This document shows, one piece after another, positions 1 to 46,651 of a DNA stretch of 54,506 nucleotides. The first letter of the stretch is position 1. Every line of letters begins with the position of its first letter. Origin of the DNA: Bacteroidaceae bacterium (GTDB lineage Bacteria; Actinomycetota; Coriobacteriia; Coriobacteriales; CADBOM01). The stretch lies in NCBI GenBank assembly GCA_963624975.1, contig CAVFRF010000064.1, positions 1 through 54,506 of the forward strand. Reading direction: 5' to 3'. Position numbers and translations under genes: made by a program. The notes beneath the pieces are model-generated. The model saw only the letters and a program-made list of their open reading frames with translations. It made no database searches and was not told the DNA's origin.

Positions 1-113
1 CATACCATAACGGCTCAGGCTGGGCTTTACAGCCAGAAGTCGCCGCTATGGCACGTCCCGCACAGGGCCCCGGCGACTCAGCCATGTTCTTGTTGAGGAC
101 TCGCCAGGTGCCA
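1..113. repeat. Copy A of a 113-bp imperfect direct repeat (partner at 4553..4665); may extend left of the window
   Basis: Hand alignment of 1..113 with 4553..4665 gives 7 mismatches and no gaps. Homology stops at 113/4665. It contains one unit of a dispersed motif: ACGGCTCAG, then a GGCTG..CAGCC hairpin, then AGAAGTCGCCG. Confidence 0.9.
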
Positions 114-147
114 CCATGATAAAGCCGATGCCAACCGCACGGCGATG

Positions 148-1407
148 TTACTCCGAAATCCGAATCGGTTGAACTTCTTCCATATCATCGGAAACAGGGA
201 TACATCCGAGCGATGCCAAAACGCAACGACCCACGTGATATCCCAGATTCACTGGCACCGCATTGCCAATTTGCCTGTATTTTGCCGTCATCTTTCCAGA
301 AAATTCCCATTCATCCGGAAACGTCTGGATACGAGCGTATTCCCGAACACTAAGCGGACGCGTCTCGGTGGGATGGCATCGTTCCGTCTGCTTTTGAGCC
401 GGAGCGCACGTGAGCGTGAGGCACGGTTGATCCCAGGACATCCTCCTCGCCATCCCGGTTCTTCCGCCCGAGAGATGAAAGCTCCCCTTCATGTACTCTT
501 TTTGCACGTCGATGGGAAGGTCGCGCCAGTTGCCGCCTTCCGGAACCATCGCCATTATCTCGGCTTTACGCTTCGGATAGGTCTGGCACTCGGATTCGGG
601 ACAACCGGCTAGCGCCTGTCTCAACGAAATAAAATAGTCCTTTTCTCTCGGGAATAGAATGGGGAGGTCGAGGTCTTTTCGGACAGCAAACAGAATTAGC
701 CTCTCGCGCTTCTGGGGGACATCCAGATACTGTGCCCGCAGAACCCGGTAGTTTACCTTGTATCCAAGCGAATCAAGAGTATGCAGCATCGTGTCGAGCG
801 TCCTGCCGCCATCGTGCTTCACAAGCCCGCGCACATTCTCGCCAATTGCGATCTTGGGATGTATGGCTTCGATTGCACGCGCGAATTCGAAGAAAAGCGT
901 ACCGCGCGTGTCTCCGAATCCCTTGCTCTTGCCCGCATACGAGAAGGCCTGACATGGGAACCCTGCTTGCACCACGGGAGTTCCCTCGTACTCGCCAAAG
1001 TCGAGTTCTCTCACATCGCCGGAAACGATGTTCCACTCCAAACCAAGCTTGTCGCTGTTGAATCGAAGCGTGGCAACGGCGTCTTTGTCTATTTCGTTGA
1101 GCATCACATGGGGCATGCCAGCATTATGGAAGCCCAGCGCAGTACCTCCAGCCCCTGCGAAAAGATCGATGCACGATGCCTCTCCGTAGGATACATCGCT
1201 TCTCAGAACCCTATATTCGGTAGCATCATCTCCACCGTTGAGCTTGCTCTGGAGTCTTTCAATTTCCTCGAGATTGAACAGTCGTCTATTGTTCTTGTCC
1301 CGAGTCGCTTTGATGAGCCCCATCTTATTCCAACGTCGGATTGTATCAACAGATACATCTAGAGCATGAGATGCTGCAGTTATGGTGACGTGTTTGCATT
1401 CTGCCAC
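148..1407 (-). CDS. DNA (cytosine-5)-methyltransferase with N-terminal MerR/excisionase-like HTH
   Basis: 419-aa ORF with a GTG start and GGAGGA 6 nt upstream. C5-MTase motifs are visible: DLFAGAGG (I), GFPCQAFS (IV, PCQ), GENVRGL (VI), QIGNAVPV (X). The first ~55 aa (ITAASHALDVSVDTIRRWNKMGLIKA..RLFNLEEIERL) look like an HTH domain. Confidence 0.93.
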   Translation of the reverse strand: MAECKHVTITAASHALDVSVDTIRRWNKMGLIKATRDKNNRRLFNLEEIERLQSKLNGGDDATEYRVLRSDVSYGEASCIDLFAGAGGTALGFHNAGMPHVMLNEIDKDAVATLRFNSDKLGLEWNIVSGDVRELDFGEYEGTPVVQAGFPCQAFSYAGKSKGFGDTRGTLFFEFARAIEAIHPKIAIGENVRGLVKHDGGRTLDTMLHTLDSLGYKVNYRVLRAQYLDVPQKRERLILFAVRKDLDLPILFPREKDYFISLRQALAGCPESECQTYPKRKAEIMAMVPEGGNWRDLPIDVQKEYMKGSFHLSGGRTGMARRMSWDQPCLTLTCAPAQKQTERCHPTETRPLSVREYARIQTFPDEWEFSGKMTAKYRQIGNAVPVNLGYHVGRCVLASLGCIPVSDDMEEVQPIRISE

Positions 1408-1423
1408 GAGAAATCCTCCAAGG

Positions 1424-1459
1424 AATCAATAACCCTTACATATGCAAGGGTTATTGATT
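1424..1459 (-). terminator. Perfect 14-bp stem-loop between the R and M genes (attenuator or terminator-like)
   Basis: AATCAATAACCCTT (1424..1437), loop ACATATGC, AAGGGTTATTGATT (1446..1459). It lies between the endonuclease stop (1487) and the methylase RBS and start (1407). There is no clear U-tract. Confidence 0.5.
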
Positions 1460-1486
1460 ATATCGCCTGACGGCTTTGGCTGAAGG

Positions 1487-2260
1487 CTATTCTTCGTCGA
1501 TAGGCACAATCTGATAAGACAACACATCGGGATGGCTCACTATATCTTCCGCAAGACATTCGATAGTCTCATCCAGCAGATTCGTGTTTGTGTAATCCTT
1601 GGCGCAATCGGAGAAAACATTGATAAGATCTTCGTAAAAATTCTCGTCGCCCGTGAGGTGATACCAGAATTCCTTGCCGGATAGGACAGGATAGTCCTGC
1701 TCGATGCGCTTGTAGTTCGCACTGATTTGAGAATGGTCACCATAGAGGATTCCAACGCAGCAATCAGTCATAGGATTGAAGTCGGCAAAATGATTTGTCC
1801 TTGCCAGATTCTTGAGTCCTGCAAAATGTCCTCTAATCGTATCCACGTCATCTTTGTTGATTGTCTGTGGGCCTGCCTTGAGCTGGCAATACTTCTTGCG
1901 TCCATCGACTACGTCGATGAATTCAATATCCATCCCTGCCGTTGTCGACGCATACCCCGAAAGAACCTCGTGGCAGAATGTCTGCACGTTGTTTCCAAAC
2001 GTGGTCGCAATCGAAGTACCCAGAACACGAGGGTAAATGAGAACTTTCGCCAAACTCTCAGGCGATTCATCCCCAAAGGCGAACGAAGCGAGGTAGTGAA
2101 TAGTGAAGGGATTGACGTTGAACTCCTTGAGCTTCGAGAGCTTCTGGGTGTTTCCCGCATGACTGTCTGCAATGGAAGTCTTGAAGAAATCCCGTGCCTT
2201 TACAAGAATCTCTTCGCGTTCCTGCTCATTCATAAAAGCCCCCAATCTTTTATGAGCCAT
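1487..2260 (-). CDS. Putative type II restriction endonuclease (partner of the C5 methylase)
   Basis: 257-aa ORF immediately upstream of, and co-oriented with, the methylase. It has a PD-(D/E)xK-like stretch GMDIEFIDVVDGRKKYCQLKAGP. No other recognisable domain, and the family is not assignable by eye. Confidence 0.6.
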   Translation of the reverse strand: MAHKRLGAFMNEQEREEILVKARDFFKTSIADSHAGNTQKLSKLKEFNVNPFTIHYLASFAFGDESPESLAKVLIYPRVLGTSIATTFGNNVQTFCHEVLSGYASTTAGMDIEFIDVVDGRKKYCQLKAGPQTINKDDVDTIRGHFAGLKNLARTNHFADFNPMTDCCVGILYGDHSQISANYKRIEQDYPVLSGKEFWYHLTGDENFYEDLINVFSDCAKDYTNTNLLDETIECLAEDIVSHPDVLSYQIVPIDEE

Positions 2261-2407
2261 CGCAATTCTTTGAATGTTAGCATGAATATCCCAGCAAAGT
2301 TCATTAGGACTGCGTTCTAGCTATACCTCGATCAACCCATTGCCCTATACCCATTATTGCTAGATATGACGAAAATAGTCCTGATGTATGATTAGACATC
2401 CCTACAA

Positions 2408-2455
2408 CAACATAATGTGTAGTATGATTCAATCTGTCACAACATGTTGTGTAGT
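2408..2455. promoter_or_regulatory. Two 16-bp direct boxes CAACATNNTGTGTAGT upstream of the R gene; the second contains a perfect 14-bp palindrome
   Basis: The boxes are at 2408..2423 and 2440..2455, with 32-bp spacing. CACAACATGTTGTG at 2438..2451 is a perfect palindrome. They lie in the divergent region between the R-M operon and the DUF4417 cassette. Confidence 0.4.
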
Positions 2456-2773
2456 TCAACCATCAGATCTCATATGTCAATGTCTTGATGGCCGGGTTCT
2501 CTTGCCAAGCATTTTCGAAAGGAGGTGATCACCTTGCGAAACGACAAGTAGTAGCAGCCGACAAAGTATAAACTCTGACGGCTGCTACGCTGGTGTGAGA
2601 ACACACCGTGTGACAACAGAAGCATCTCACGCCAGCCCAGCTAACAGAACTCAAAATTCCAAAAGGTGATACATCGCCGGAAGGGCAGGTGAGGAACATG
2701 CCTGGATTTTCGAGCCCATACACAAGTGCTTATCATCCAGTTGACGGCATCTTGGAATTCTCCGGGTGTTTCT

Positions 2774-3550
2774 ATGAAGCGCAATAGCATCAAGGTACTC
2801 GATAACGGATCCAAAGAGTACAGCGAAATCGACCTCTACAAGAAACTCAACTTTGAGTTCTTGCGTTACACAAATCTTACGCATGCGGCTGGCAAGCGCA
2901 ATCTCCCATCCCTCGTATGCAACACAAAAATTTTCCCTGACTACATTGCTTTGTCTAATCAGCCATCTCTTTTTCATAAAACCGAACTCACAGCAATTGG
3001 ATTTTGGGAATACGATATCGACTTCGATGGATTCGACGGGCTGTTCAACGCGATTTATTACAACAGGAAAGATCGTCTCGAATTCTATAAGAAGCGCTTT
3101 TCGAACGTGAAAATCTTCTTCACACCCGATTACTCTCAGTTTGGAGATGTGTCGGATATCGAATCTGATTACAGGTTGTTCAAAGATCGCGTAGTAGGAA
3201 TCTGGCTTGCCATCGAGCTCCACGCAGTGGTCATTCCATTTGTAACGGTTCCAACAATCGATAGCATGCCCTGGGCATTGAACGGTTTGGAGGATTGTTC
3301 GGTTGTTGCATTCAGCACCAAGGGCTATGTAACCGTCCCAGAAGAACGTTCAACGCTAAAAGCCATCGTTCGATGCACCGTGGATACGCTCGATCTGAAG
3401 ACGATAGTCGTATATGACGTATGTGGCTCCAACGATGCGGTCAACGACATATTCGCTTACCCGATTGAGCAAGGCATCGAGATCGTTGTACCCATGAATT
3501 CTCTCAAAGAACGCAACATTGAACGCAGGAGATTTCGCAATGCGCAGTAA
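2774..3550 (+). CDS. DUF4417-like protein (divergent paralog of 45001..45663)
   Basis: By-eye alignment to the second copy: FWEYDxxF vs FYEDDxKF, FTPDYSQF vs ISPDFSLY, YRLFKDR vs YRSRAF, VVIPFV vs PVIPNI, VVAFSTKG vs AIAVGSHG, KTIVVYD vs TTIVVYG. The start is uncertain: ATG 2774, or GTG 2726 as in the track. Confidence 0.55.
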   Translation: MKRNSIKVLDNGSKEYSEIDLYKKLNFEFLRYTNLTHAAGKRNLPSLVCNTKIFPDYIALSNQPSLFHKTELTAIGFWEYDIDFDGFDGLFNAIYYNRKDRLEFYKKRFSNVKIFFTPDYSQFGDVSDIESDYRLFKDRVVGIWLAIELHAVVIPFVTVPTIDSMPWALNGLEDCSVVAFSTKGYVTVPEERSTLKAIVRCTVDTLDLKTIVVYDVCGSNDAVNDIFAYPIEQGIEIVVPMNSLKERNIERRRFRNAQ

Positions 3551-4040
3551 CAACGGCCATCTTGCACACGGGACGACTGGAAATCCTCAAACTTCTATAG
3601 ATCAGGAATTCTATGCGTATGTCGTTCGCGATAACGAGCGCAGACTTAGGGATCTAGTATTGGACCCGATGATTGACGAGTCACTAGTAGCCGAGCTTGA
3701 ACGCTTGGAGGTAAAATTCAATCGCAAAGAAATGGTCTTCATCGCACGTGACAAAACAGGCCAGATTGTCTGGTTGGAGAATGGCACATCGAGCGCAGGG
3801 CTTACACATCTTGAGAAGCGTGGACATATAGGCGACTTGTCGAGAAAATTCTGCGTCGACGAATCGGATGTTCCCAGGCTCATTCGAAATATCGTGAGGG
3901 ATGGAAAGGTTGTCTCAAACAAACTTGTTGATCGCCATGGTCGCAAGGGATATGAACGAACCTACGAATATAGAGAACACAAGGTTGTTCTTGCCGCCAT
4001 CGGCACCAACGGTTTCTTGGTTACTATCTATCCTATTTAG
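3540..4040 (+). CDS. Toxin-like small protein (possible BECR/RelE-like RNase fold), function unknown
   Basis: ATG 3540 follows AGGAG at 8-nt spacing and overlaps the DUF4417 stop by 11 nt. The C-terminal half (IVWLENG..GLTHLEKRGHIGDL...YEYREHKVVLAAIGTNGFLVTIYPI) has the beta-rich ...VTIYP ending seen in DUF4258/BECR-type toxins. This is a by-eye judgement only. Confidence 0.45.
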   Translation: MRSNNGHLAHGTTGNPQTSIDQEFYAYVVRDNERRLRDLVLDPMIDESLVAELERLEVKFNRKEMVFIARDKTGQIVWLENGTSSAGLTHLEKRGHIGDLSRKFCVDESDVPRLIRNIVRDGKVVSNKLVDRHGRKGYERTYEYREHKVVLAAIGTNGFLVTIYPI

Positions 4041-4052
4041 AAAGGGAGCTTC

Positions 4053-4379
4053 ATGAAAACCATCAAGCTTATGCTCGATTACCTGCAAGGCCCCATATGG
4101 ATTAGTGATGTGGAAACAGGCAAGCCGATGACAGGTATCGACATTATTGACAACGATGAGCAGATCCGAGTTCTCAATTTCGAGATACAGAACGCTTATG
4201 ACTCGTATTACGAGTTTGATTCTCATGACCAAGCCTGCTGGTTCAACGAGGAGCAGGAGCGGAAAGACAAGGAACGCATGCTTGAGCTGTTTGCAAAGCT
4301 CAACAGCAGGCTCGACGAAATCAACGACGGGACATTCATTGTCGACGACCGCGAAACTCCGCGTATTCAGAAACTCTAA
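4053..4379 (+). CDS. Small acidic protein, immunity/antidote-like by position
   Basis: 108-aa ORF with AAGGGAG RBS, starting 12 nt after the previous stop. It is rich in D/E and has no recognisable domain. Confidence 0.5.
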   Translation: MKTIKLMLDYLQGPIWISDVETGKPMTGIDIIDNDEQIRVLNFEIQNAYDSYYEFDSHDQACWFNEEQERKDKERMLELFAKLNSRLDEINDGTFIVDDRETPRIQKL

Positions 4380-4528
4380 GCCTGACTCGGTAAAGACTAC
4401 TGGCTCTTCTAGACCTCTGTTTTAGATACTCCAGAGAGATGGGTAGCTTCAGAAAGAGTTGCAAGCAGAAGTCGAAGAGACTCGCCGGGTGTCGACCTGC
4501 AAGTCCACGCAATTTTCTACTTGAAGCT

Positions 4529-4747
4529 CCACCTGGGATGCCCTGCGCGGGACATACCATAACGGCTCAGGCTGGACTTTACAGCCAGAAGTCGCCGCTA
4601 TGGCACGCCCCGCACAGGGCTCCGGCGACTCAGCCATGTTCTTATTGAAGACTCTCCAGATGCCAGCGTGGGGTGTGTCCGAACGGCGACTTTTGGCCGA
4701 AGGCCAACTGAGCCGTTTGGATATACCCCACGATGGCACCCCGGTGG
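4529..4747. repeat. Long imperfect foldback element; includes repeat copy B at 4553..4665
   Basis: Complementary segments checked by hand: 4529..4542 with 4735..4747; AACGGCTCAG 4561..4570 with CTGAGCCGTT 4708..4717 (perfect); CCAGAAGTCGCCG with CGGCGACTTTTGG (1 mismatch); CACGCCCCGC with GCGTGGGGTGTG (with G-U pairs). Each arm carries its own small GC hairpin. Confidence 0.8.
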
Positions 4748-4764
4748 ATTTTCAACGAAAGCAC

Positions 4765-5190
4765 TTACGCCATCGAGGATCCCAGCTTCTTGCAATCCTC
4801 GGCGGCATCGCCCTCGGGATAGTCCTTCACGATGAGCGTATCCACTACGTTCACGCCTGCCTTGACGGCGCGGTCCTTCCAAACGTCCATCCATTCGCCT
4901 TCGTTCCAGTCGTAGGATCCGAAGAGCACCGTGGGCTTGCCGCCAGAGGCCAGTTCGCCCTCGACCGCGCTGTACATCGGCTCGAACTCGTCTTCCTCAA
5001 GCTCCTCGTCGCCCATTGCGGGGCATCCGAAGGCGAAGGCGTCGTAGTCGCCAAGCTTGCTCGAATCGAACCCAGACGGAGTCATCACATCGACCTCGAC
5101 GCCGGCTTCCTTGGCGCCATCGGCGACCAGGTTGGCCATGGTCTCGGTGTTGCCGGTGCCGCTCCAATATACGGCTGCCACTTTGCTCAT
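4765..5190 (-). CDS. Short-chain flavodoxin
   Basis: 141 aa. It has the N-terminal FMN-phosphate loop YWSGTGNTE and an acidic body with FGCPAMG and GSYDW. It overlaps the upstream gene stop by 4 nt. Confidence 0.9.
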   Translation of the reverse strand: MSKVAAVYWSGTGNTETMANLVADGAKEAGVEVDVMTPSGFDSSKLGDYDAFAFGCPAMGDEELEEDEFEPMYSAVEGELASGGKPTVLFGSYDWNEGEWMDVWKDRAVKAGVNVVDTLIVKDYPEGDAAEDCKKLGSSMA

Positions 5191-5711
5191 GCTGCTGCTC
5201 CTTTCGAGAACATACCTTCAGACATGAGGCTCTCCAGGCTATCGCCTGCCTCATACCGCTCTTCAAAGCACCTCGCGCATTCCTTGTAGCGCGCGAAGCA
5301 CTCGATTGCCTCTTCGACGTTGGCATAGACCTTCCAGCATCCCGATGCCAGCGAGTTTGCGCCGTTGTTCTCAACGAATCCGATTACATCTTCGAGCGGG
5401 TACCCGAGGAAAACCCCGATCTCGTGAGGAAAGTTGCCCGGTTGCCCGTCGGCTGTGGCATGGGTGTTCTGCATCCTCATGCGACGGCGCAGGATGCTCA
5501 TGCAATCGCGTGCCGAGGTGGGGTCGTAACCGTAGGCGCGCAGAAATTTCGCAACCTGCAGGTCGTTCAGCCGAGCCTCGAGCATCTCGGGGCGATACAC
5601 GTAGATGAGCGTGCCATGGTTGCGCTTTGCAAGCGGTTCGACCGCCAGGCCCATTGGCGAGAATCGGTCGCGACACTCCTTGAGGGCATGTCGGAGCATC
5701 TTGCAGTGCAT
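5187..5711 (-). CDS. DUF3793-family protein (commonly flavodoxin-linked)
   Basis: Trimmed from the 291-aa track ORF to Met at 5711. It contains FPHEIGVFLGYPLEDVIGFVENNG...GCWKVY, typical of this family. The discarded N-terminal extension is antisense to the ATPase remnant. Confidence 0.75.
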   Translation of the reverse strand: MHCKMLRHALKECRDRFSPMGLAVEPLAKRNHGTLIYVYRPEMLEARLNDLQVAKFLRAYGYDPTSARDCMSILRRRMRMQNTHATADGQPGNFPHEIGVFLGYPLEDVIGFVENNGANSLASGCWKVYANVEEAIECFARYKECARCFEERYEAGDSLESLMSEGMFSKGAAA

Positions 5712-5760
5712 ATGATGGATGGAGGAGCATCGCTCGTCGGCAGCGACAGCCGCGTCGTAG

Positions 5761-6099
5761 CAGCTCGGCGACGGCATCAACGACGCGCCCGCTCTCAAGC
5801 GCTCATACGTGGGCATCGCCATGGGCGGAATCGGCAGCGACATCGCGGTGGATGCGGCCGACATCGTGCTGGTGGGAGACGGCATCGACACGCTCCCCCG
5901 TCTGGTGGCGCTGTCGAAGCGCATGATGGGCACCATCAAGCTCAACCTCACCTTCTCGCTCACGCTCAACTTCGTGGCCATAGCGCTGGCGATGACGGGC
6001 ATCATGGGACCCGTGATAGGTGCGCTCGTGCACAACGCCGGCTCGGTGCTGGTGATCGGCAACTCCGCGCTGCTGCTGGGCTGGAAACCCGGGCGCTAG
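5761..6099 (+). pseudogene. 3-prime remnant of a heavy-metal P-type ATPase
   Basis: The frame opens right after an in-frame TAG at 5758. It reads QLGDGINDAPALKRSYVGIAMGGIGSDIAVDAADIVLVGD..., which is the GDGxNDxP hinge, followed by the last two TM helices. No upstream A, P or N domains are present in any frame. Confidence 0.8.
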
Positions 6100-6102
6100 C
6101 TC

Positions 6103-6831
6103 CTACAGGGCGCGAAACTCCCTGCGTAGCCGCGCCATCACGTCGAGCATCACGTAGAAGAGCGTCTCGTAGTGCATGAAGCCCAGCACGTTGCTGTCCC
6201 ACATGAACACGATCTGCGCGTCGAACTCGTCGTCGCCGTCCCAGAACTGAAACATCAGGTCGAGCCAGTCGAACAGCGGCAGCATATAGGTGAGGTCGGC
6301 ACGGGCAATCGCGGGCTGCAGCTTGCCGCCCAGATTCTCGCATGCTTGCGCGAGCTTTTCCACGTTGCCGCAGAACTCGTCGGCATACTCCTGGCTGAAC
6401 ACGCCCGGGGAAGGACTCGCCCCCACAGGCGCGAGCGTGGTGACCGTGCAGTACTGCCCGGACAGGCACGACGGCTGCAGCCCCGGCATCGCGCCTTCGT
6501 GCGTGGCGCCGGGAGCAAAGTCTTGGAAGCGGCACAGCATATCGTAGATGGTGAGCACGGGAGCCGGCTCGGTGTAGGGCACCCACTCCCCCGAAGCGCC
6601 GAGCACGTCGACCTCTGCCGTCGTGCGCGACACACGGCACTTCTCGTCCATATATGCGATGTAGAGGTAGTCGTCGTCGTGCCCGAGCCCCAGATGCCCG
6701 AAACGGTCGATCGTCTTTTGCATGTCGTATTTCACGAAGTACTGTCGGCCCTGCACCCCGAGCTTCTCGAAATTGCTCATGTCGTCGAGAATGATGTTGG
6801 CAAAGTCGTTGCTTTCCGCACAGTGCGTCAT
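6103..6831 (-). CDS. DUF3786-like protein
   Basis: Trimmed to Met at 6831, giving 242 aa. The C-terminal FWDGDDEFDAQIVFMWDSNVLGFMHYETLFYV resembles the DUF3786 signature. It overlaps the mntP stop by 4 nt. Confidence 0.65.
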   Translation of the reverse strand: MTHCAESNDFANIILDDMSNFEKLGVQGRQYFVKYDMQKTIDRFGHLGLGHDDDYLYIAYMDEKCRVSRTTAEVDVLGASGEWVPYTEPAPVLTIYDMLCRFQDFAPGATHEGAMPGLQPSCLSGQYCTVTTLAPVGASPSPGVFSQEYADEFCGNVEKLAQACENLGGKLQPAIARADLTYMLPLFDWLDLMFQFWDGDDEFDAQIVFMWDSNVLGFMHYETLFYVMLDVMARLRREFRAL

Positions 6832-7406
6832 AGAGCAAGCACCCCCAGATGTTCGAGCAGAACCTTGAGTCCGATGAGAATGAGAACAACGCCGCCAACT
6901 ATGGTCGACGCCTTCTCGTATTTGGAACCGAACCTGTTGCCGATTACCACACCTGCAAACGATATCACGAACGTGGTGCATCCGATAAGGGTGACGGTGG
7001 GTACGATGTCGACCTGCACGAGCGCGAACATGATGCCGGTGGCCAGCGCGTCGATCGACGTGGCGATGGCCAGCATGAACAGCTCCTTGATGTCGAGTTT
7101 GGGCGCATCTTCCGCGACCTCGTCTTCGTCGCCGTCGTGGAATGCGTCCCATAGCATCTTTCCGCCGATGAGCGCCAGCAAGCCAAAGGCGATCCAATGG
7201 TCGATGGGGTCGATGAGCACCTTGAGCTGCGCGCCCAAGAACCACCCGATCGTGGGCATGAGAGCCTGAAACACGCCGAAGAACAGCGCGATCACGAAAG
7301 CGTGCTTGTAGTTGACGCGCTTCATGCCCAGCCCCTTGCAGATCGAGACTGCAAACGCGTCCATGGACAGGCTCACGCCTATCAAGAGGATATCTACGAA
7401 TCCCAT
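6828..7406 (-). CDS. mntP: Manganese efflux pump MntP
   Basis: 192 aa and multi-TM. It has the duplicated SMDAFAVS / SIDALATG motifs characteristic of MntP/YebN. Confidence 0.9.
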   Translation of the reverse strand: MGFVDILLIGVSLSMDAFAVSICKGLGMKRVNYKHAFVIALFFGVFQALMPTIGWFLGAQLKVLIDPIDHWIAFGLLALIGGKMLWDAFHDGDEDEVAEDAPKLDIKELFMLAIATSIDALATGIMFALVQVDIVPTVTLIGCTTFVISFAGVVIGNRFGSKYEKASTIVGGVVLILIGLKVLLEHLGVLAL

Positions 7407-7467
7407 ACGTTCCCTTCCAAAAAGTCAGCCCGTTGCGCCGACGTTGCAAAGCTTGAATAACTCTCAT

Positions 7468-7590
7468 GGCATCTGGCTGGGTGTGTCGTCACCGGCGACT
7501 TCTGCAACGAAGCGAAGCCGAGCCGGTGGCGATGCAGCCAGCCAGATGCCCGAGTTGAGTCCCAAGGTGCCCGGCAGGGTGTGTCGTCAG
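7468..7590. repeat. Third, more divergent copy of the dispersed GC-rich structured repeat unit
   Basis: GGGTGTGTC..CGGCGACTTCTG..CGAAG..GAGCCG parallels 4671..4716. There is an internal 13-bp inverted repeat (GGCATCTGGCTGG at 7468..7480 with CCAGCCAGATGCC at 7538..7550). There is also a 12-bp direct repeat GGGTGTGTCGTC at 7479..7490 and 7577..7588. Confidence 0.7.
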
Positions 7591-8192
7591 CAGCTCTCCC
7601 CTTCCAACTTTGCCTGCAGCTTTCCGAGAGCTGCGAAGATTTTCTCGCGGTCCTCGTCTTTGTGTCCGTCGGTCCACCATTGCAAGACCATCTTGACCAG
7701 ACCACCCGACACGAACGCGGCGAACATCTCCTTGTCGATGTCGCAGAGAATCTCGCGAGCGTTGCCCGCGTTCAGCGATTCGATTACAGATTCACCGATG
7801 AAGTCGGAAAACGACCAGAGCAGATTGCCCAGCACGTTGCTCTTCAGCACGTTGTCCATAAGACCCGAGTGCTGCGACAAGAACGTCATCATCTCGTCGG
7901 CCATCATGGTCTCGCATTCATAGGAGCCCATGGGCGTGTCTCTGCCGGCCACGGCAGAACGAAACTTGTCGCGGATGCGCGCCATGTAGAACCTGAAGAA
8001 CTCGTTCTTGTCCTCGAAATGCTTGTAGAACGTGGTGCGGCGAATCATGGCCCGTTCGCACAGAAGCCCGATGGTGATCTCTTCAAAGCGCATCTCCTCC
8101 ATGAGGGTGGTAAACGCATCTGTGAGCGCCATGTAGGTTTTCTGAACGCGCAGATCCGAGGTCTGCATCTTGCCTTCGACATCAAAAGCCAT
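7587..8192 (-). CDS. TetR/AcrR-family transcriptional regulator
   Basis: N-terminal HTH with the ITIGLLCERAMIRRTTFYKHFEDK signature. The start is uncertain: Met at 8234, 8192 or 8171. Confidence 0.85.
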   Translation of the reverse strand: MAFDVEGKMQTSDLRVQKTYMALTDAFTTLMEEMRFEEITIGLLCERAMIRRTTFYKHFEDKNEFFRFYMARIRDKFRSAVAGRDTPMGSYECETMMADEMMTFLSQHSGLMDNVLKSNVLGNLLWSFSDFIGESVIESLNAGNAREILCDIDKEMFAAFVSGGLVKMVLQWWTDGHKDEDREKIFAALGKLQAKLEGESC

Positions 8193-43334: not shown

Positions 43335-43370
43335 CAAGCTCGTTGTTGCCCCGGTCGCGTGCAACGTTTA
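43335..43370. repeat. Left copy of a perfect 36-bp direct repeat
   Basis: CAAGCTCGTTGTTGCCCCGGTCGCGTGCAACGTTTA is identical at 43335..43370 and 46616..46651. Confidence 0.95.
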
Positions 43371-46615: not shown

Positions 46616-46651
46616 CAAGCTCGTTGTTGCCCCGGTCGCGTGCAACGTTTA
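46616..46651. repeat. Right copy of the perfect 36-bp direct repeat
   Basis: Identical to 43335..43370. Confidence 0.95.

Follow-up and report, generated by a model that had tools for sequence, protein, structure and literature searches.

What are the two long direct repeats that bracket a restriction-modification (R-M) system at the start of contig CAVFRF010000064.1 (hereafter C64), and did they have a part in the arrival, or in the later movement, of the genes that lie between them? The window, that is, the whole stretch of DNA analyzed here (54,506 nt, C64:1-54506), is an entire contig of a Coriobacteriia-type assembly (GCA_963624975.1) made up of 100 contigs and 1.97 Mb, which is 98% complete. 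A sequence-only reading of this window had described a 113-bp imperfect direct repeat around an island carrying the R-M system and a DUF4417 gene, and had proposed either that the island carried its own copy of a host sequence or that members of a dispersed repeat family had recombined. The explanation that we favor, with a probability of roughly 0.55, is that a compound repeat, similar to the repetitive extragenic palindromes (REP) and their hairpin-forming doublets (REPIN) of other bacteria, was duplicated as sister copies around a foreign defense islet, and that the islet has been exchanged via the genes that flank it.

The repeat was found as it had been described: positions 1-113 and 4553-4665 of the window aligned without gaps and with 7 mismatches (93.8% identity, E 4e-44), and a repeat search lengthened the match to 1-118 and 4553-4670, with 92% identity. 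The left copy is also cut at the window edge, which is a contig end located inside the repeat. The start of C64 is overlapped, over 41 exact bases, by the reverse-complemented contig C8. Because this 41-mer is present six times in the genome, the C8-C64 join required independent support, and two contigs from other assemblies bridged the gap. The first, from an independent NCBI metagenome-assembled genome (MAG; contig L026), agreed with the join with 99.98% identity over 4541 nt, and the second, an ENA contig of 16,184 nt (L067) from a strain that is ~99% identical, spanned the EttA-like gene, the left copy, the islet, the right copy, and the flavodoxin gene. With this leftward extension, which had been suggested as a check, the left copy gained 82 nt. 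In full, the left copy measures 200 nt, of which 82 precede the window and the rest are window positions 1-118, and the right copy measures 201 nt (4470-4670). Their alignment has one indel and 180 identical columns out of 201 (89.6%), and the longest stretch without a difference is 37 nt. On C8, the left copy starts inside the TAG stop codon of its neighbor, a 559-aa EttA-like ABC-F gene. The concern that the repeat might simply be part of a larger duplicated region was borne out as regards its size (~200 nt), but the duplication still ends exactly at the edges of the islet. The locus is organized as follows, in window coordinates:

1..118, plus strand: visible part of the left copy, comprising most of the inverted "A" unit and, after a spacer, the initial ~25 nt of the "B" unit.
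119..4469, no strand: low-GC foreign islet of 4.35 kb, with five genes and without a recombinase gene.
148..1407, minus strand: C5 cytosine DNA methyltransferase with an N-terminal MerR-type helix-turn-helix (HTH) domain (PF00145, 1.9e-76; PF00376, 4.6e-9; TIGR00675; PADLOC MTase_II).
1487..2260, minus strand: type II restriction endonuclease of the EcoO109I family (PF14511, 4.5e-31).
2726..3550, plus strand: DUF4417 protein, first of a three-gene cassette (PF14386, 1.1e-10; phrog_8680 and phrog_940, "nuclease").
3540..4040, plus strand: 166-aa protein without a family match, located where DUF4417 cassettes have their variable second gene of ~170 aa.
4053..4379, plus strand: 108-aa protein of conserved length, encoded by the last gene of the DUF4417 cassette.
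4470..4670, plus strand: right copy, with a private 37-nt leader, the A unit, the spacer, and the start of the B unit.
4765..5190, minus strand: short-chain flavodoxin, the right-hand core neighbor, following the right copy.

The DNA between the repeats is AT-rich accessory DNA, as had been noted, with a GC content of 48.4% compared to 61.6% for the genome, in which <1% of the 4-kb windows fall below 50% GC. The edges of the repeats coincide with the edges of this low-GC DNA, and the R-M/DUF4417 island is bracketed by them. Searches of the islet against Pfam, NCBIfam, PHROGs, and PADLOC gave no match to an integrase or a transposase. The islet is a foreign, recombinase-less defense islet composed of two modules, the R-M pair and the DUF4417 cassette. 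The start of the methylase gene differs among gene callers, the product being 391 aa long without the MerR HTH or 419 aa long with it (GCA_963605625.1), and an exact-protein look-up with the 419-aa reading returned no record.

The present-day behavior of this islet was analyzed by comparing our genome (G000) with L067 and with two other contigs, L068 and L069, giving three related-strain contigs in all. The differences between G000 and L067 were distributed along the locus as follows:

EttA-like gene: 21 differences in 1681 nt (1.25%).
Islet: 6 differences in 4345 nt (0.14%).
The two repeat copies with the remainder of the B unit: 1 difference in 504 nt (0.2%).
Flavodoxin to DUF3786: 44 differences in 2703 nt (1.63%).

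A block of low divergence extends from −364 to 4845 and contains 7 differences in 5210 nt (0.13%), compared to 71 in 4759 nt (1.5%) for the flanks; about 78 differences would have been expected in the block (P = 6.5e-25). Its edges are located in the last ~280 nt of the EttA-like gene and in the last ~80 nt of the flavodoxin gene. The same right-hand boundary was observed in L068 and L069 and the same left-hand boundary in L068, while L069 does not reach beyond the window on the left. These sequence comparisons indicate that conspecific lineages recently exchanged a 5.2-kb block, with the islet in it, through homologous recombination in the core genes on either side. Both ends of the block fall within these genes (EttA-like and flavodoxin), and the crossovers did not take place in the repeats. 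In recombining bacteria, recombinase-less islands are exchanged by recombination in flanking core genes, a process of allelic island replacement. Our locus resembles such cases in that divergence is low across the islet and rises again within the core genes on either side, but differs from them in that no islet-free recipient allele was present among the three related-strain contigs compared.

These results also bear on an entry of the Campbell type, in which a circular islet carrying one conspecific copy of the compound repeat would have integrated by homologous recombination at the resident copy downstream of the EttA-like gene, giving two chimeric direct repeats, and could be excised by the reverse reaction. 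Homology ends in the left copy at the point expected for the end of a truncated island-borne copy and sets in at the point of the right copy expected for its start, stretches of identity as long as 37 nt could sustain recombination, and the islet has no recombinase of its own. However, the recent exchange between strains went through the flanking genes and not through the repeats, an identity of 89.6% over 200 nt makes a poor substrate for recombination, and neither a circular or excised form nor an empty site was seen among the contigs examined. We therefore consider this scenario unlikely.

With the exception of its leader of ~22-37 nt, the whole repeat belongs to a family of 77 hairpin units found at 54 places by blastn and iterated nhmmer, which amounts to 0.31% of the genome. 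The option of a dispersed repeat family was thus correct as to the nature of the sequence, but nothing that we found indicates that the island moves by recombination between them. The layout of the repeat is composite: the left copy consists of the leader, the A unit, and the spacer, and ends ~25 nt into the B unit, at the point where the low-GC DNA begins. Three units of the family were delimited in and near the right copy with a covariance model (CM), which also matched the visible left copy (C64:1-55, minus strand):

4514..4648, minus strand: hairpin unit A, with an apical loop of type GCTGTAAAGCCCAG (CM R1, 119.4 bits).
4633..4763, plus strand: hairpin unit B, complete in the right copy only (CM R1, 122.7 bits; fold of −67 kcal/mol).
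7442..7573, plus strand: third, diverged unit of the family, just upstream of the DUF3786 gene (CM R1, 59.9 bits).

The structure of the unit was derived from an alignment of 40 complete units. They are ~110-130 nt long and their ends are mutually inverted (GAGGACTCGCCAGGTGCC ... GGCACCCCGGGAGAGTC). The stem contains 26 consensus pairs, 15 of which show compensatory changes, and two G.U pairs are near-invariant, being kept in 39 of 40 and 40 of 40 units. An internal loop (GACTTyTG / CCTGA) is conserved, and three types of apical hairpin were distinguished. The CM gave 106 matches in this genome, with scores that were strongly asymmetric between strands (~120-130 bits on one strand vs. ~40 on the other); the covariation of the stem would fit a DNA or an RNA hairpin alike. 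The units are intergenic, with almost no overlap with predicted genes, and lie between tandem, convergent, and divergent genes, in both orientations and without an orientation bias relative to the neighboring genes. Twenty-five to 26 of the 54 places fall at contig ends. The A units also contain a possible EcoO109I-type site (RGGNCCY), which was not used as evidence, such sites being frequent at this GC content.

No match to the family was found by blastn in 30 relatives, or with the CM in 11 genomes of the same family, one of them of the same genus. Among 300 genomes of the same class, the CM gave matches in only five, all of them weak (28-36 bits). As far as the genomes examined show, the family appears to be confined to this species. 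A scan of window positions 1-8000 against Rfam returned nothing like the unit, and only sub-threshold matches to microRNA (miRNA) hairpins, unit A included, which are spurious matches to a generic hairpin shape. A second dispersed repeat, ~300 nt long, AT-rich (44-46% GC), and with motifs such as TTTGTCGCAGAT, directly adjoins hairpin units at several places. It was located at C95:43698-44045, C19:23983-24268, C8:5990-6224, C13:14102-14397, C14:13210-13289, C91:16188-16459, and C80:15195-15335, and a larger composite element may exist of which this repeat and the hairpin unit are both parts.

Among the known kinds of repeat, the family is closest in character to REP sequences, to the bacterial interspersed mosaic elements (BIME) that they form, and to REPINs (Bertels & Rainey 2011, PMC3116915; Di Nocera et al. 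2013, PMC3733652). Like these, its units are short imperfect palindromes that are intergenic, high-copy, and lineage-specific, and occur singly or in small arrays of alternating orientation; the hairpins measure ~100 nt as in REPIN doublets, and compensatory changes keep their stems paired. One criterion for REP sequences is that the palindrome carries a conserved tag, GTAG or CGTC, at one of its ends (PMC3733652), but no such tag was found in an alignment of 41 units, in which GACG occurs only within a variable triplet region. Nor was a gene for a REP-associated tyrosine transposase (RAYT, or Y1 transposase; PF01797) found in this 98%-complete genome, whereas control genomes did match. The units also differ from REPs and REPINs in being longer (~110-130 nt), in the conservation of an asymmetric internal loop, in G.U pairs that are invariant on one strand, and in their host, which is a Coriobacteriia-type actinobacterium and not a proteobacterium. 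Miniature inverted-repeat transposable elements (MITEs) are likewise small, non-coding, and multi-copy, with inverted ends, but the inverted ends of our units are the outer part of one long palindrome, and no partner insertion sequence shares them: a search with the terminal 15-mer (≤2 mismatches) gave 11 stray single matches and no inverted pair around a gene. On visual inspection of the alignment, the limits of the units are fuzzy.

The copy number of the family also bears on the idea that the repeats are attL and attR attachment (att) sites of a small integrative element mobilized in trans by an integrase encoded elsewhere, in the manner of a cis-mobilizable element (CIME). In its favor, the two direct repeats coincide exactly with the boundaries of the islet, and the start of the left copy falls within the stop codon of a conserved gene. 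The window also contains a second recombinase-less island with a DUF4417 gene, flanked by a perfect 36-bp direct repeat (43335-43370 and 46616-46651). That repeat is, however, unrelated to the hairpin family, and the two DUF4417 proteins of the window share only 25% identity. No integrase gene was found within or beside the islet, no tRNA or transfer-messenger RNA (tmRNA) gene was found in the window, and repeats of 200 nt that are 89.6% identical and belong to a 77-copy family would offer dozens of targets to a site-specific enzyme. The two copies do have an identical run of 37 nt in common, in family sequence that other copies also contain. Mobilization in trans at such sites is very improbable, and the repeat appears to be neither a fragment of a host gene nor a classical att site.

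Do the two flanking copies then have a closer relationship to each other than to the rest of the family? Their first 37 nt (AGTCGAAGAG.CTCGCC.GGT.TCGACCTGCAAGTCC, 3 mismatches, E 7e-8) were found nowhere else in the genome, and they have the same architecture, the same orientation, and the same composite breakpoints. Over the 158 nt common to the family, the two copies also group together, with weak support (43%). We infer from these features, and mainly from the private leader, that they are sister copies. Several observations weigh against this reading. The hairpin A of each copy is slightly nearer to a copy on contig C52 (2 mismatches in 88 positions) than to that of its partner (4 in 88), and in the 28-nt proximal part of the leader, other members of the family are nearer than the partner copy. 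Because the C52 copy and other members are closer in these parts of the repeat, the private leader carries most of the argument for sisterhood. The divergence between left and right copies (~10%) is the same in both strains compared (this genome and L067), so that the duplication is far older than the split between these strains, or else the copies were never identical.

As for the earlier proposal that the island carried its own copy of a host sequence, the evidence points both ways. The flanking copies, which share a private leader, are probably sisters, in line with a duplication of one sequence; the family, on the other hand, is found in this species only, while the closest DUF4417 proteins are ~67% identical and belong to other Coriobacteriia and to a Staphylococcaceae MAG. 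A repeat copy carried in from the original donor is disfavored since the family is restricted to this species and the DUF4417 relatives sit in other taxa.

The most serious rival is that the islet is flanked by chance, because two members of the family landed independently, because one of them hopped locally, or because the islet fell between two existing copies. The family is abundant and clustered, and several of its pairs lie 0.3-6 kb apart around DNA of ordinary GC content. The flanking pair, with 90-94% identity, is no more alike than family pairs usually are, and in the hairpin the C52 copy matches equally well or better. In addition, Furuta et al. (2010, PMC2853133) recognized chance insertion between repeated sequences as one of three classes of direct repeats flanking R-M systems, the two others being site-specific recombination and long target duplication. 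What speaks against chance is the private 37-nt leader, which together with the shared composite architecture marks the two copies as sisters, and the position of both repeat edges at the drop in GC content, the left copy ending exactly where the foreign DNA starts. Chance flanking, which would correspond to the third class of Furuta et al., appears to us possible but clearly less probable than a duplication. We also considered whether low-GC islands are generally flanked by this family; this was not so, since the other low-GC islands of this genome are unflanked, an observation that counts against the explanation that we favor.

Under the reading that we favor, one compound of ~200 nt, placed immediately behind the EttA-like stop codon, would have been duplicated in direct orientation, and the 4.35-kb foreign defense islet would have come to fill exactly the space between the two. 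Most likely, insertion and duplication occurred together, matching the "insertion with long target duplication" described for R-M units, although a local copying event of the repeat could have produced the same layout. Recombination between the repeats might loop the islet out. The islet is kept in every sampled assembly, which would fit its stabilization by the R-M pair.

The comparison with the published insertions can be made point by point. As in R-M long target duplications, the insert is shorter than 20 kb (here 4.35 kb), contains an R and an M gene and no mobility gene, has a lower GC content, and lies between conserved genes, and direct repeats of >30 bp, far longer than the target duplications of transposons, are present at both of its ends. 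The published long target duplications are, however, near-identical (e.g., 44/46 or 47/47) and single-copy, and correspond to an empty site in a related genome, and Furuta, Abe & Kobayashi (2010, PMC2853133, where Nobusato et al. 2000 is cited as reference 37) excluded multi-copy genomic repeats from this class. Our repeats, being 89.6% identical and for the most part made of a multi-copy family, depart from these cases in both respects, and no empty site was found; these differences count against the favored explanation.

The search for an empty site was performed by exact-protein look-ups with the flavodoxin, the EttA-like protein, the 162-aa neighbor, the 108-aa islet protein, and a variant of the flavodoxin (P0122). 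None of the contigs retrieved displayed an empty site with a single repeat copy: each of them carries the islet or breaks inside the repeat. The 108-aa gene was recovered on 16 contigs, which represent 10 or more samples or assemblies, and all 16 hold the islet with the same gene order, and the contigs recovered on the EttA side all run into the methylase gene or break in hairpin A. JGI metagenomes, searched with the DUF3793 protein, yielded no close relative or conspecific sequence, and a DUF4417 search of genome contigs returned one contig, 1.2 kb long. Because no empty-site contig was found, the link between insertion and duplication is one that we infer rather than observe. In two discordant contigs from other assemblies (L070:1041-3468 and L071:1040-2063), the repeat next to flavodoxin continues into sequence that in our genome flanks family copies on C22 and C14, and at face value these contigs also speak against our reading. 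We considered them as evidence for a repeat-mediated rearrangement or an empty site and rejected them as such, since the same assemblies contain islet contigs that end in the right copy (L091 and L092) and since the two joins are incompatible; most probably, both contigs are chimeric.

As L070 and L071 illustrate, assembly programs take wrong routes or stop at copies of this family, and as the window itself begins inside a repeat, a mis-join or a collapsed repeat at the contig end had to be envisaged for the locus as a whole. Both junctions were nevertheless reproduced in independent assemblies, including the one 16-kb contig that spans the entire locus, and an artefact of assembly is extremely improbable.

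Related genomes were then compared at the same position. In a genome of the same genus (G001), the ortholog of the EttA-like gene (91% identical) directly abuts a DUF3786 homolog, the two genes being convergent and almost overlapping (L035 = G001:C30, ~7999-8001), and neither the islet, the repeat, the flavodoxin gene, nor the DUF3793 gene was found at this locus, a layout that we take to be the ancestral one. The G001 region appears to be much more AT-rich than its counterpart in the window. A TCGAAG motif after the EttA stop codon is common to both genomes, but belongs to the coding sequence of another gene in G001 and was not weighed. Synteny was not shared with more distant relatives.

The DUF4417 cassette, composed of the DUF4417 gene, a gene for a ~170-aa protein, and a gene for a 108-aa protein, recurs in gut Coriobacteriia (L059 and L062-L066), close to R-M, abortive infection (Abi; AbiE), and DUF4143 genes, and occurs there without the particular R-M pair described here. 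An XRE-ImmA pair often precedes the cassette; its middle gene varies, encoding a DUF6883 protein in some loci, and the length of the 108-aa gene is constant. In another Coriobacteriia species (L059, and also L060 and L061), the cassette lies between 94-nt direct repeats that are 82% identical (L059, 6715-6808 and 9882-9975), each of which folds into a long hairpin (−48 and −57 kcal/mol); one source names the L059 DUF4417 protein as that of a Paratractidigestivibacter sp. As the L059 cassette is also flanked by hairpin-folding direct repeats, it hints that long intergenic hairpin repeats could be landing pads for recombinase-less defense cassettes (DUF4417 cassettes and R-M pairs), which would insert into or beside a hairpin, ~100-200 nt of the local repeat being duplicated upon insertion, an idea that we regard as speculative and rather doubtful. 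A general association of DUF4417 cassettes with long direct repeats was rejected, as it was observed in only one of five other loci, the remaining four (L062-L066) being devoid of such repeats.

The locus described here is an ordinary arrangement, in which a new family of a known kind, the intergenic hairpin repeats, adjoins a recombinase-less defense islet of a known kind. The family accounts for much of the fragmentation of this genome, since, of the contig ends located in repeats, about one in four lies in a member of this family. For the annotation of this species, caution is needed, as direct repeats around its islands need not be att sites. The family also adds a REP/REPIN-like example, with strong covariation, a conserved internal loop, and strand-specific G.U pairs, from a Coriobacteriia-type gut actinobacterium that lacks a RAYT gene. 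Finally, the locus offers a clean example of a small defense islet passed between strains via recombination in the flanking core genes.

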